Source of the DNA: Eledone cirrhosa
Taxonomy: Eukaryota
DNA: 64,000 nucleotides
Direction of reading: 5' to 3'
Assembly: GCA_964016885.1 (NCBI GenBank)
Contig: OZ024743.1
Coordinates: forward strand, 70,556,001-70,620,000
The notes under the pieces were generated by a model that was not told the DNA's origin, did not search any database, and saw only the letters and a list, made by a program, of their open reading frames with translations. Below are positions 2,360 through 50,985 of the stretch, one piece after another (positions within the stretch are counted from its first letter, which is position 1; every line of letters begins with the position of its first letter). A program made the translations under genes and the position numbers.

Positions 2360-3826
2360 TACAATGTGATGAGCCTCTACACACAATGTAATGATCCTCT
2401 GCACACAATGTGATGATCCTCTACACACAATGTGATGATCTTCTACACACAATGTAATGATCCTCTACACACAATGTGAAGATCCACTACACACAATGTG
2501 ATGGTATTCTACAAGCAACGTGATGATCTTCTACACACAATGTGATGATCCTCTACGCACAATGTGATGATCCTCTACACACAATGTGATGATCTTCTAC
2601 ACACAATGTGATGACCCTCTACACACAATGTGATGATCCCCTACATAACATGTGATGATCCTCTACACACAATGTAATGATTCTCTACACACAATGTGAT
2701 GAGCTTCTGCACACAATGTGATGGTCTTCTACACACAATGTGATGAGCTTCTACACACAATGTGATGGTCCTCTACACACAATGTGATGACCCTCTACAC
2801 GCAATGTGATGATCCCCTACACACAATGTGATGATCCTCTACACACAATGTAATGATTTTCTACACACAATGTGATAATTTTCTACACACAATGTGATGA
2901 TTCTCTACACACAATGTGATGAGCTTCTGCACACAATGTGATGATCTTCTACACACAATGTGATGAACTTCTACACACAACGTGATGATCCTCTACACAA
3001 AACGTGATGATTTTCTACACACAATGTGATGATATTCTACACAACATGTGATGATCCTCTACAAACAATGTGATGAGCTTCTACACACTGTCATGAGCTT
3101 CTACACACATTGTGATGACATTCTACACACATTGTGATGATATTCTACACACAATGTAATGAGCCTCTACACACATTGTGATGAGCTTTTACACACTGTG
3201 ATGATCCTCTACACATAATGTGATGATCTTCTACACACATTGTGATGAGCTTCTACACACAATGTTATGATCCTCTACACACAATGTGATGATCTTCTAC
3301 ACACATTGCAATGAGCTTCTACACATATTGTGATGATCTTCTACACACATTGTGATGAGCTTCTACACACAATGTGATGAGCTTCTACAGACAATGTGAT
3401 GAGCCTCTACACACAATGTGATGAGCTTCTACACTTATCGTGTGATCTTCTACACACAATGTAATGAGCCTCTACACAAAATATGATGATCTTCTACACA
3501 CAATGTGATGAACATCTACACACATTGTGATGATCTTCTACACTCAATGTGATGATCTTCTACACACATTGTGATGATCTTCTACACTCAATAGGATGAG
3601 CCTCTACACACAATGTGATGATCTTCTACACACATTGTGATGATCTTCTACACACAATGTGATAAACCTCTACACACAATGTGATGACCCCCTACACACA
3701 ATGTGATGAGCTTCTACACACAATGTGATGAGCTTCTTCACACTGTCATGAGCTTCTACACATATTGTGATGTGCTTCTACACACAATGTGATGAGCCTC
3801 TACACACAATGTGATGAGCTTCTACT
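2360..3826. repeat. Minisatellite, 22-23 bp unit (TGTGATGATCCTCTACACACAA), roughly 60 copies
   Basis: Direct tandem repetition with point variants and no unique spacers. Confidence 0.95.
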
Positions 3827-30145: not shown

Positions 30146-30947
<802 letters not shown>

Positions 30948-32018: not shown

Positions 32019-32145
32019 GGTACACAGAGTCTAAGTTTCCCTAGTGTGATTATCTCTCACTATTTTAGTACTTACAAGGCTCGACGCCACTTAACTTCGA
32101 TGATCGGCCGAGTACTGTTGCTTTCAACGTGATATAGCCTTAAAC
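32019..32145 (-). pseudogene. Degenerate 5S rRNA-derived sequence
   Basis: Minus strand GTTTAAGGCTATATCACGTTGAAAGCA..CTCGGCCGATCATCGAAGTTAAG..CGTCGAGCC..AGTACT..GGGAAAC..CTGTGTACC then a T-run parallels metazoan 5S rRNA, with many substitutions and an insertion. Confidence 0.75.
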
Positions 32146-35330: not shown

Positions 35331-36321
35331 ACGACCCAAACCGCAGGACACGTAGGGGAAACGACCACCCCACAGATTCGGACCGTGAAGATAACAAAAA
35401 GCATAGCGCCCAAAGGGGAAGCAACAGTGCTGGAACCACCAGCAACCCAACAAATCTCCAACAAATCACGACGCCCCCGACCCACACATATAGTAGGAGA
35501 TACCGAAAAATCACGTGGTACAACCCACCCTACTCAGCGGCCCTAAAGAACAGCTTGGCCCGATCATTCTTTGGAGTACTTGATAAATGCTTACCGAGGG
35601 ACAATAGATACCACAGGATCTTCAACAGACACACTGTGCAGCTCTCGTATTCCACCACGAGAAATCTGGCCCAACACATAGCTAGCATCAACAGGAGTAG
35701 GCTTAAAAACCACACACAACCAGAAGATGGCAATACAAGCACTCAGCAGAACCATGTGAAAGGTGGGAAGGGGGGACCCAGAGCCCACCCAAGAAACCCA
35801 AACAGACCAGGGGACCCCCACCGTGCCTGGGGGAAGACCACCATGTAACACATAACGGGAACCCTAATCTAGGCACGCAGAGGTCGACCACCCTCAGCAA
35901 CTGCAGAAACCCCGAATCATGCCCCCTTGGTAATGAATGCCTTAAGAAGAACCTAGTATACGGTTGTAGGGTTAACACCCCCAACTCCGAACACCTCTAC
36001 ATAGGAGCCACATCAACGAGCTTTAAAGACCGTTGGTACAACCATCGCCGTTCATTCAAGAAGGAGGCCAAAAGGAAAAGCACGGCTCTCTCCGACCTGA
36101 TCTGGAAGCTTAAGCTGGACAGGACCCCATACTCTCTGGCCTGGTACATAATCAGGAAAGTACCACCCGATAAAGGGGGATCTTGCATATGCAAACTATG
36201 CCTGAACGAGACCCTCGAGATACTAAGAGGTGGAAGCGGCCTGATAAACCTCAGAACCGACTTCTTCGGGACATGCAGACACCTTAGAGCCGGGACCTTC
36301 CTCAAGATATATGGACAGTAG
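35331..36321 (+). pseudogene. Penelope-type GIY-YIG endonuclease C-terminal region (one frameshift near 35850)
   Basis: ITWYNPPYS..LDKCLP..IFNRHTVQLSYS; NCRNPESCPLGNECLKKNLVY..LYIGATSTSFKDRWYNHRRSF..STALS..IW.LK..CKLCLNE..LINLRTDFFGTCRH. Confidence 0.88.
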
Positions 36322-37625: not shown

Positions 37626-37836
37626 GTTTTAATATAGATGAGATTCTACAGGACTAGAACTGTTTCATTCTTTAGAAATCATCAGGAATCACTGATTCAA
37701 GGGATGCCTGATGATTTCTAAAGAATGAAACATTCTAGTCCTGTAGAATCTCATCTATATTAAAACTTTTATACTCTGCTATGTATTGAGTACCTTACTT
37801 ACTGTGGTTTCCTCCGATTCAACCCGGAATAACGTA

Positions 37837-39352: not shown

Positions 39353-39709
39353 TTCTACCTTGAGCTGCGACCGATAGATGGTATTAACAATTGGAAAGAC
39401 CAACGGAAACATTGTTCCCTCGTTCCGATTTGACGAAACGTGATCGATCCTTTATATATATATGTAAATACACACACACATACACATGTATATGTATACA
39501 TATATATATTTAATATAGAAAGGCTTCTACAGGACTAGAACTGTTTCATTCGGTAGAAATCACCAGGAAGCCTGATGATTTCTACCGAATGAAACAGTTC
39601 TGGTCCTGTAGAAGCCTTTCTATATTAAATATTTATACTCTGCTATGTATTGAGTACCTTACTAACTGTGGTTACCCCGGATTGAACCCGGGATAAACTT
39701 ATATATATA

Positions 39710-41164: not shown

Positions 41165-41893
41165 AAAGTTTTATTTAAATTGTTGGGTTACAACGAGTAA
41201 ATATTTATAACTGATATAAAAGCACTCAACAAGTATTTGGAGTATATTTACGATATAAATAAATGGAAACTATATTTATAAAACCATATTTATTTCATTA
41301 TATATATTTCAGGGATATCATATTGAAAATATGGTATGCCTTCTTCAGACAAAATACAATATAAACAGTCTTATAAATAAATAGATTTGACATACCTTAC
41401 AACTTCAACTTCCATTTAAAAAGTTGATTTGGTAGTGAAAAATGTTAGGGACAGTTATAAAAAGAAAGAAAGAAAGCGAAGAAAAAGAAGAAATGCATGC
41501 AACGAAAAACAGAGAGAGATAGATATAGAGAGATAGATAGAGAGAAGAAATTCATGTAAAGAAACAGAGAGGGATAGATAGAGAGAGAAAAAAACACAGA
41601 GAGAGATAGATAGAGAGAGAGAGAGAAGAGAGAGAGAGAAAAAAATAGAGAGAGATAGATATAGATAGAGATAGAGAGAAAGAAAATAGGTAGTTGGGCA
41701 CCAGTTGAAAGACGTATCAATGATATATTTATTTATTTATTTATTTATTTATTTAGTTCTAGTATTATTTATAAGACTGTTTATATTGTATTTTGTCTGA
41801 AGAAGGCATACCATATTTTTAATATGATATCCCTGAAATATATATAATGAAATAAATATGGTTTTATAAATATAGTTTCCATTTATTTATATC

Positions 41894-41897
<4 letters not shown>
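41165..41897. mobile_element. Fold-back element, family E variant; hammerheads at 41793-41850 (+) and ~41296-41353 (-)
   Basis: UUGU CUGAAGA AGG...CCU GAAA UAUAUA UA AUGA; arms separated by a GA-rich spacer. Confidence 0.75.
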
Positions 41898-41943
<46 letters not shown>

Positions 41944-41948
<5 letters not shown>

Positions 41949-42340
41949 TAGTCCTTCATCAGTGATCTTCCAACCATCATTGGTATTTCATCGCTTTAAA
42001 GACCATATACCTCCGGTTGGTGCGACCCACGGCTAAAAAAGGTCGTTGGGACACGTAAATAAAGGGGACAAGAGTGTAAACAAACAAAAATGGTGAAGCA
42101 ACGAAATAGAAATTTGCGACTTGACTCCTTCTTCCTCACCTTTCGTTGCTTCACCATTTTTGTTTGTTTACACTCTTGTCCCCTTTATTTACGTGTCCCA
42201 ACGACTTTTTTTAGCCGTTGCTCGCACCAACCGGAGGTATATGGTCTTTAAAGCGATGAAATACCAATGATGGTTGGAAGATCACTGATGAAGGACTAAC
42301 TTTATTCATATGTAACCCATTAGCAACCCCGCAGCACGTT

Positions 42341-42347
<7 letters not shown>
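41944..42347 (+). mobile_element. Fold-back element, family H, carrying a rearranged hammerhead
   Basis: 41944-42103 is the reverse complement of 42141-42304; flanked by (TA)n. Confidence 0.85.
42195..42296 (+). ncRNA. Putative non-circularly-permuted hammerhead ribozyme (copy 1)
   Basis: GGUA-UA^-UGGUCUU (42236-42248) ... U-GAAA-UACC (42257-42265) ... AAGAUCA-CUGAUGA-A-GGAC (42278-42296); helices covary with copies 2 and 3. Confidence 0.75.
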
Positions 42348-42372
<25 letters not shown>

Positions 42373-42449
42373 CTATCTATCTAAGGCGGGTAAAATTCCC
42401 GAGATCCATGGACGAGTTCTCCCCAGCGGTCTCTGTCCCTCATTATCGC

Positions 42450-48375: not shown

Positions 48376-48481
48376 GTTTTCCTCATCAGTTGTCTACTGG
48401 GCGTCTCGGATATTTCCACGCTTTAAAGACAAGATATCTACCCCTAAAGCGTTTAATAGCTGGGTAAGTTATTGGGAAAAC
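48376..48481 (-). ncRNA. Putative non-circularly-permuted hammerhead ribozyme (copy 3, most divergent), within a (TA)n-flanked element 48329-48535
   Basis: GUUUUCC..ACGCUUU..GAUA-UC^-UUGUCU..AAAGCGU-G-GAAA-UAUC..AGACAA-CUGAUGA-GGAAAAC. Confidence 0.7.
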
Positions 48482-50350: not shown

Positions 50351-50351
<1 letters not shown>

Positions 50352-50985
50352 AATGCGATGAAATACCAATGATCGTTGGCAAATCACTGATGAGGGACTC
50401 GTTTTATAACATGTAATCCATGTGCAACCATGCAGTATTCTTCTCCCCATATTTTTCATATATTTACCTAAACTGCGTTTCTATGTTTCTCGCTTTCTCT
50501 CTTACTGCTCCCTCGTTCTCTCTGTTTCTCTTACTTTCTTTCGTCCCCTCTGTCATGTCAGTTAACACTTTCTCTCTACTGACCTCTTCCTCGCACTTCC
50601 ACTCACTCACTTTCTGTTTCTCCCCTTCTTACTTCCTCCCGTTCGCTACGAATCCGATTTTCCTTCTTTCTCACATCGGATTCACTAGCGAAAAGTCTGT
50701 TTCTTACACGCTCATGTATTCACCCAGTTTATGCTAACAGAATAACCATGTTGCTTGTTTTTCTTTCCATCTTCGGTTAGCTTTCCCCTGTGTTGTTTAC
50801 TTGTCTCACTCGCTTTACGCGTTTCAATTGTCCCAATAACTTATTTTAGTTATTGTCGCACCAACGTGAGGTATATGATTTTTAATGCGATTAAATACCA
50901 ATGATCGTTGGCAAATCATTGATGAGGGACTCATTTTATAACATGTAATCCATGTGCAACCATGCAGTATTCTTCTCCCCATATT

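Follow-up and report, generated by a model that had tools for sequence, protein, structure and literature searches.

In the 3.0-Gb genome of Eledone cirrhosa, a small, mobile, non-coding repeat is predicted from its sequence to carry, in about 20,000 copies, a hammerhead ribozyme whose conserved blocks stand in a scrambled order. The copy under study (copy 1) lies in AT-rich, microsatellite-rich DNA within the window, the whole stretch of 64,000 nucleotides that was analysed. There the cleavage site, GAAA and CUGAUGA follow one another on the + strand at 42195-42296 (order S-G-C), and we predict that the region is a self-cleaving hammerhead of the non-circularly permuted type SGC. In the reading that we consider likely, a kink in stem III serves as a structural hinge by which the knotted RNA can close intramolecularly, and the predicted S-G-C hammerhead lies at the tail of a non-coding repeat probably derived from Naiad retroelements.

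The S, G and C blocks of copy 1 occupy 42236-48, 42253-65 and 42278-96 in 5′ to 3′ order (all coordinates of copy 1 are on the + strand). The whole predicted ribozyme (42195..42296), delimited by sequence, covariation and folding, is closed by helix B (GUCC 42195-98 / GGAC 42293-96). Hairpin H (42199..42220; covariation, folding) forms the fourth arm of a four-way junction and is separated by a single unpaired C (42221) from helix A (UCGC 42222-25 / GCGA 42253-56), which covaries and which we infer to stand in for stem II. The stem III arm (42227..42277) has a distal helix (CCAACC 42227-32 / GGUUGG 42272-77) and a proximal helix (42236-40 / 42261-65, including GGUA 42236-39 / UACC 42262-65), both with covariation; between them lie the GGA of the kink-turn n strand (G3n, G2n, A1n; 42233..42235), the AAU bulge (L1-L3; 42266-68) and the GAU of the b strand (G1b, A2b, U3b; 42269-71). 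U16.1-A17 spans 42240..42242, and the cut is predicted between 42241 and 42242 by analogy with the hammerhead core (PMC10085705). Stem I (42242-48 / 42278-84; covariation) is joined to helix A by a 4-nt linker (42249-52). U11.1 (42257) and the GAAA of block G fill 42257..42261, and the CUGAUGA of block C with A10.1 fills 42285..42292, so that A10.1 (42292) faces U11.1. The core (CUGAnGA, GAAA, U16.1-A15.1 and H17) is intact both in copy 1 and in its inverted twin.

When copy 1 is folded without constraints, B, H and the distal and proximal helices of stem III reappear; the energy of its nested minimum-energy fold is unremarkable against shuffles (z −1.5). The Rfam hammerhead covariance models gave no match at gathering score in the whole window, and none in 41900-42400 even at E up to 10. 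Sub-threshold Rfam miRNA matches near copy 1 were attributed to the inverted repeat, and a canonical stem II was ruled out for copy 1, which has no GAAA 3′ of CUGAUGA.

The layout cannot be put down to chance, because GAAA-N7-GA-N14-CTGATGA matches the genome 20,880 times against 54 for the reversed control pattern, and an upstream pattern that ignores the kink matches 11,082 times against 0 in its control. Lengthening the spacing by one base (+1 variant) leaves 1,148 matches (control, 34). The GAAAGGCCGG family, which inflates a count of 28,105 matches, was rejected, as it has a canonical stem II downstream. For the covariation analysis, 117 sites were screened for fit to stem I and proximal stem III, 82 passed, and the alignment holds 69 distinct copies after removal of duplicates and visibly truncated copies. 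The tree holds 104 copies drawn from 198 distinct sites, of which 118 have a cleavage block and 104 the distal helix as well. Copies were sampled mostly from one chromosome, by patterns that fix the 23-nt spacing.

Copy 1 is carried by a 5′-truncated, non-coding, Penelope-like repeat unit of ~630 nt (42106..42346, +), which is 97% identical by BLAST to the unit of locus L002 and ends in (TA)n. It abuts an inverted 5′ twin of the same element (41942..42106, −), whose ribozyme (41951-42052, −) keeps the kink intact and differs in hairpin H by two changes. Directly upstream of the copy 1 region, a 138-nt inverted repeat (41243-41380 and 41765-41902) belongs to a different element with CUGAAGA. 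Repeat units are about two-thirds pyrimidine, have tandem spacings of 445-705 nt and are non-coding (longest ATG frames of 32, 143 and 66 codons in three doubled units). Copies continue 11-110 nt past the ribozyme, with 3′ ends clustered 14-16, 54-56 and 64 nt past CUGAUGA, and a (TA)4 run is reached within 120 nt in 114 of 140 copies; the 5′ ends are ragged and often inverted. Penelope-like insertions are described as having (TA)n, 5′ truncation or inversion and partial tandems (PMC8557442), and the context here is Penelope-like in its inverted 5′ twin, (TA)n targets and tandem units. Five-prime ends fall at the predicted cut site in 47 matches (26 of 30 inspected are truncated) and two bases downstream of it in 40 (18 of 30 flagged, some as small deletions). 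Their enrichment at the cut is about twofold at most, and in several cases the junction shows short homology to the inverted strand. The element is present in DNA-type contigs of 4 runs (three organisms, three studies). Another short repeat (loci L031-L042, ~20,000 matches) likewise lies in (TA)n and often has its 5′ part inverted.

Every helix, those of the junction included, covaries. Over the 69 copies, 85.2% of cells pair, compared with 72.2% in shuffles (0/500 as high) and 32-47% in slid controls; related copies can exceed shuffles without structure, and it is the slid controls and the double-sided changes, found at 30 of 35 pairs, that carry the weight. All pairs change on both sides in helix A (4/4; 91.7% of cells paired), in distal stem III (6/6; 91.1%) and in stem I (7/7, in rows selected for stem I), and pairing reaches 78.6% in helix B and 80-88% in hairpin H. 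Since fit to stem I and proximal stem III had decided which rows were kept, independent evidence comes only from distal stem III, A, B and the hairpin. Median identity between lineages is ~57%. One lineage, in which the linker from stem I to helix A is 2 nt, is handled poorly by the software: MAFFT shifts its cleavage block, which lowers the pairing counts of the alignment, and the automatic helix B finder misplaces B, which we read there by eye. Its hairpin H has the same position and an unrelated sequence. The pairings quoted for copies 1 and 2 in the first-pass annotation are present in the sequence, including the reversal of the 4b:4n pair in copy 2.

In ordinary hammerheads the 10.1/11.1 position is conserved. 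Here the strand before GAAA is paired to one upstream segment (helix A) and the strand after CUGAUGA to a second (helix B), and H separates these two segments. The strands that would make a regular stem II, after CUGAnGA and before GAAA, share at most one pair, and stems I and II have no helix 'I' between their free sides: the segment on the 5′ side of stem I′ belongs to distal stem III, and a three-way junction makes the connection. Of 92 scorable copies, 75 allow a 10.1-11.1 pair, and in 36 of these the two positions could pair with the bridging strand as well; in 9 of the 92 they pair only with the bridging strand and in 8 with nothing. The 10.1-11.1 pair is present in 49 of 69 alignment rows. 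In the 2-nt-linker lineage, read by eye, A10.1 is taken up into helix B and C11.1 into helix A, so that stem II has no pair at all. A single branch-migration step separates the two pairing states of the junction. The four-way junction proposed earlier (B, H, A and the core) is supported by covariation in all its helices, and the accompanying claim that stem II is a single pair describes the 75 copies and fails for the other 17. As read from the sequences, stem II is zero or one pair within a four-way junction, depending on lineage.

A kink-turn in stem III, also proposed beforehand, is supported by the covariation of the flanking helices and by the position-specific constancy of the kink bases. 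The G.A positions had been expected to be conserved across genomic copies, and in a set of 99 copies selected blind to the kink G1b is kept in 96/99 and A2b in 97/99; the same set shows A 54, U 34, C 8 and G 3 at L1, U 74, G 11, C 10 and A 4 at L3, and U 62, C 22 and A 15 at 3b. On the tree of 104 copies, internal branches carry few changes at G1b (0), A2b (1), G−1n (0), C−1b (1) and A1n (2), compared with L1 (7), L2 (3), L3 (6), 3b (5) and 3n (6), with 4 at 2n; the constancy of G1b and A2b on the tree is partly imposed by the search patterns, an effect from which the kink-blind set is free. The −1b:−1n pair is C:G in 64 of 77 copies, and C:G at this place favours ion folding of k-turns (PMC5689011). 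At the level of sequence, constant kink bases with C:G before the bulge are the signature of a k-turn.

The identity of 3b.3n sets the Mg2+ folding class of kink-turns (PMC4382518). Among the 104 copies, 68 have standard kinks (39 of the ion-folding class, 22 with box C/D-like U.U and 7 other), 18 have U at 2n and 18 are neither; strict box C and box D words (U.U with G:C at 4b:4n) occur in 12/104. The standard pattern of a duplex, a 3-nt bulge, G1b.A1n and A2b.G2n is found in copies 1 and 2. Copy 1 has U.G at 3b.3n and C:G at −1b:−1n, and by analogy its kink is predicted to fold in Mg2+ alone (PMC4382518, PMC5689011), with G:C at 4b:4n expected to lower folding somewhat. The suggestion that the kink is of box C/D type survives for copy 2, which has U.U but with C:G at 4b:4n, and falls for copy 1 with its U.G and C:G. 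With standard kink-turns (Kt-7, SAM-I, U4, box C/D, Kt-23) these kinks share a C helix ending in C:G, the 3-nt bulge, G1b.A1n and A2b.G2n; the U.G of copy 1 is typical of bacterial Kt-7, and the U.U of copy 2 is that of the box C/D kink-turn. They differ from known kink-turns in lying inside a catalytic helix of a natural hammerhead and in a 3b.3n pair and bulge that vary by lineage. The kink is not universal, since the 2-nt-linker lineage (mean identity 0.90; at most 720 pattern matches) has ordinary pairs in place of the G.A pairs, GAU being paired to AUC beside a plain 3-nt bulge in 8/8 copies; its sister group has a larger internal loop at that place.

Two other lineages are represented in the window. 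Copy 2 (50830..50930, +), of a second lineage with the box C/D-like U.U kink, has UAAA instead of GAAA (G12) and UUGAUGA instead of CUGAUGA (C3), and because of these two mutations it is predicted to be inactive. A partial copy with intact core words and no cleavage block (50351..50398, +) precedes it by one unit (532 nt). Competing folds are predicted for copies 2 and 3; that of copy 2 is a hairpin in which the helix A strand and the kink b strand pair inside stem I, and it could represent an off state. Copy 3 (48377..48480, −), of a diverged third lineage, had been described as having a degraded kink and no clear 10.1-11.1 pair. The second point stands, G lying opposite G at 10.1/11.1, with G10.1 able to pair in helix B. 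The first does not: A2b/U2n (with C-G at 3b-3n) is, judging from the sequences, an inherited lineage variant and not decay, because it is common to 18/104 copies in several lineages. Its U2n resembles that of T. thermophilus Kt-23, which however needs U.G at 3b.3n (PMC2790904) where copy 3 has C-G, a poor-folding pair, and by this analogy folding of the copy 3 kink is doubtful.

Several further features were noted in the window. Hammerhead motifs in canonical order, within other repeats and some in inverted pairs, lie at 30427-30680, 37675-37730 and 39556-39600. A 5S rRNA-like match at 32019-32145 (−; 40 bits, cut-off 38) is possibly a pseudogene or a 5S-derived repeat, and a 22-nt unit is arrayed in 67 copies at 2361-3825. 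A fragment at ~35900-36100 (+) resembles a Penelope-like GIY-YIG endonuclease.

Naiads have been reported to be without canonical hammerheads, eight of them being labelled 'HHR_half_core' with no fold given (Craig et al. 2021, PMC8557442). From that source we read, by eye, the 3′-terminal 300-400 nt of 44 consensus sequences of Naiads. Eight of the 44 3′ ends show the SGC order, helix A and a long interrupted stem III: those from Beroe (a weak match with a 2-bp stem I), three from Acropora, and those from Morbakka-2, Euprymna, Octopus bimaculoides and O. vulgaris; the fold was not seen in this portion of the other 36. Among these eight, the kink is confined to the two from octopus (Naiad_Obim and Naiad_Ovul), which also have a 23-nt spacing and a hairpin loop identical to those of copy 2; their kinks (U.U, with U:A) are predicted by analogy to fold poorly without help. 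The six remaining ends have other bulges or insertions at the place of the kink, which in the coral and Morbakka ends is a 5-7-nt bulge, with C11.1 pairing in helix A. In RNase P, k-turns and pk-turns are likewise exchanged (PMC5061560). The repeat shares with Naiad Penelope-like elements the (TA)n targets, inverted 5′ copy, partial tandems and tail, and differs in that Naiads encode an N-terminal GIY-YIG and a C-terminal RT whereas the copies here encode no protein. By comparison with these published consensus ends, read by eye, we infer that the repeat descended from Naiads.

Two pattern searches of this genome directed at the Naiad ORF gave 0 matches. Penelope-like ORFs beside loci L010 and L022 were rejected as parents (no Pfam match above cut-off) and appear to be mere neighbours, and what lies upstream in L010 is part of a different repeat. 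The GIY-YIG fragment of L096 was dropped as a Naiad lead: it led to 13 proteins, and 3/3 of those inspected have the endonuclease C-terminal and so are not Naiads. Other arrangements were seen among the Naiad ends. Two clam ends resemble twister ribozymes. The ends of the records before Naiad_Hpol and Naiad_Lpol, probably nematode by record order, read by eye as hammerheads with C-S-G order, a GUC site and a regular stem II; this is type CSG, represented by only two sequences in Eckert et al. (PMC10085705). Several bivalve and hemichordate ends share a conserved 3′ motif unlike a hammerhead (PMC8557442).

The arms are tied closely: helix A to distal stem III by 1 nt (41 of 42 examples, the exception being a copy with a deletion), distal stem III to stem I by 0 nt, and stem I to helix A by 4 nt (2 nt in one lineage). 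Through these 1-, 0- and 4-nt ties the catalytic junction is linked by three arms (stem I, helix A and stem III) to another three-way junction, which makes a cage; as all three arms share the same two junctions, stem III would have to fold back. We used a crude axis model with assumed values (2.8 Å per pair, stems II and III coaxial, stem I tilted by 0-60°) and a published k-turn angle of 50° (PMC5061560). In this model the gap between arm ends is 56-60 Å with stem III straight, 37-48 Å with a 60° bend and 11-20 Å with the 50° kink, set against a bridgeable gap that we put at ~25 Å by our own estimate. The earlier proposal that the bend closes the scrambled topology is therefore in keeping with rough geometry. 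Helix A, which is continuous with G12 and takes the short stem I linker as stem II does in published SGC forms, would for these reasons be the stem II stand-in and stack on the catalytic core, helix B would stack on hairpin H, and stem III would point away from the core and then turn back at the kink. The top three-way junction would take the place of the contact that ordinary hammerheads make between loops I and II. The kink would be folded by Mg2+ together with the cage, with Snu13/15.5K as an optional helper. The cut after 42241 would turn tandem transcripts into unit-length RNA, which might then be retrotransposed in trans. Several observations count against this reading: the kink-free 2-nt-linker lineage was still amplified, 8/92 copies have no possible 10.1/11.1 pair, the two Naiad-directed searches of this genome gave 0 matches, 5′ ends show little enrichment at the predicted cut, and the folds of copies 1 to 3 are unremarkable in energy (copy 1) or have competitors (copies 2 and 3). 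On the axis model the kink-free lineage is predicted to cut poorly in cis, and this is the weakest point of the hinge model. A homogeneous lineage with an extra U in distal stem III (loci L005, L008 and L113-L118; ~533-nt tandems) offers a natural test of the length tolerance of the cage.

It had also been suggested that cleavage could depend on a host protein. The kink would then be a switch, the cage closing and cutting efficiently only with Snu13/15.5K (L7Ae family) bound, at least in the U.U lineages and the autonomous octopus Naiads. This agrees with the 22 U.U pairs among 68 standard kinks, the 12/104 copies with strict box C and box D words, the U at L3 in 74/99, and, by eye, the combination in Naiad_Obim and Naiad_Ovul of U.U with U:A at −1b:−1n, predicted poor ion folders; a helper protein for slow SGC ribozymes was raised by Eckert et al. 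(PMC10085705). We nevertheless regard the switch as unlikely. Copy 1 and the lineages with C at 3b are predicted to fold in ions alone, internal branches carry 6 changes at L3, the kink is absent from one lineage, the six other Naiad ends have plain bulges or insertions, and tertiary context alone can fold a k-turn (PMC3651934). The non-U L3 in 25/99 copies and the 39/68 kinks of the ion-folding class argue against a strict protein site. In its fullest form, a hammerhead without true stem II, caged by the kink-turn, would cut only with Snu13/15.5K in box C/D-like lineages, would time the processing of retrotransposon RNA and would be the missing Naiad ribozyme; we give this version, too, little credence.

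Less probable again is a domain-swapped dimer, in which the helices form between two units or molecules, there is no cage to close and the kink is a flexible hinge or a relic. Tandem repeat units, the kink-free lineage and the description of minimal Penelope hammerheads as cleaving as dimers would all be accommodated. Arm lengths and kink position are, however, fixed across the divergent lineages (~57% median identity), the +1 variant is scarce (1,148 matches vs 20,880), Naiad_Ovul and Naiad_Esco are listed without a pLTR (PMC8557442), and published SGC ribozymes cut during transcription (PMC10085705). Least probable is that the fold is real but no longer catalytic here and persists because a Penelope-like reverse transcriptase recognizes it at the 3′ end. 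The amplified lineages without kink or 10.1-11.1 pair, the lack of a clear 5′-end excess at the predicted cut and the 11-110 nt by which copies run past the ribozyme might suggest this. Against it, U16.1 is kept in 100/104 copies, and H17 is non-G in 102/104 yet varies between A, C and U, as the cleavage rule of hammerheads allows; both are weak points, being part of the selection score. The same core can also be made out in animals ranging from comb jellies to squid.

The intramolecular, kink-hinged ribozyme that we favour is close to the type-SGC HRIMA-1 and SGC variant ribozymes, with which it has in common the S-G-C order, CUGAnGA, GAAA, a UH site and stems I and III that cross; in both, a short linker leads from stem I into the strand preceding GAAA, of 4 nt in our copies and typically of 3 nt in the published forms (PMC10085705). 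Published SGC ribozymes have a regular stem II of ~5 bp and a separate helix that ties stems I and II (PMC10085705), whereas here stem II, of 0-1 pair, opens into a four-way junction, and the kinked stem III leads to a three-way junction that serves as the tie. On sequence grounds it is predicted to work like an SGC hammerhead, yet it falls outside the two published alignments, lacking two defining features. The SGC rows seen from Eckert et al. are all environmental 'Ga' contigs, and word searches of that paper's text and supplement returned no 'kink', 'Octopus', 'Metazoa' or 'Eukaryota' (PMC10085705). Animal non-LTR retrozymes likewise consist of tandem non-coding units with one hammerhead each, and derive from Penelope-like pseudo-LTRs; theirs are type I hammerheads, sought with type I models, in contrast to the SGC form here (bioRxiv 10.64898/2026.07.22.740005). 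The text of that preprint contains neither kink, octopus nor cephalopod, and 'permut' only in a reference title. Within the reach of our literature search, which left most subscription journals outside, we found no kink-turn reported in a natural hammerhead, no SGC form beyond the 2023 paper and no four-way junction at stem II.

How the topology of non-circularly permuted hammerheads closes was left open by Eckert et al. (PMC10085705), and we propose as an answer for SGC that a kink-turn, or a bulge in other Naiads, folds stem III back. The junction suggests that the hammerhead core can work with a four-way junction replacing stem II. The natural lineages, which vary in junction register and in kink class (ion-folding, box C/D-like, U2n, none), form a ready series for comparing cleavage rates and protein dependence. 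If true, the finding would move the SGC form from environmental RNA to tens of thousands of animal loci and would explain the 'half cores' of Naiad retroelements.
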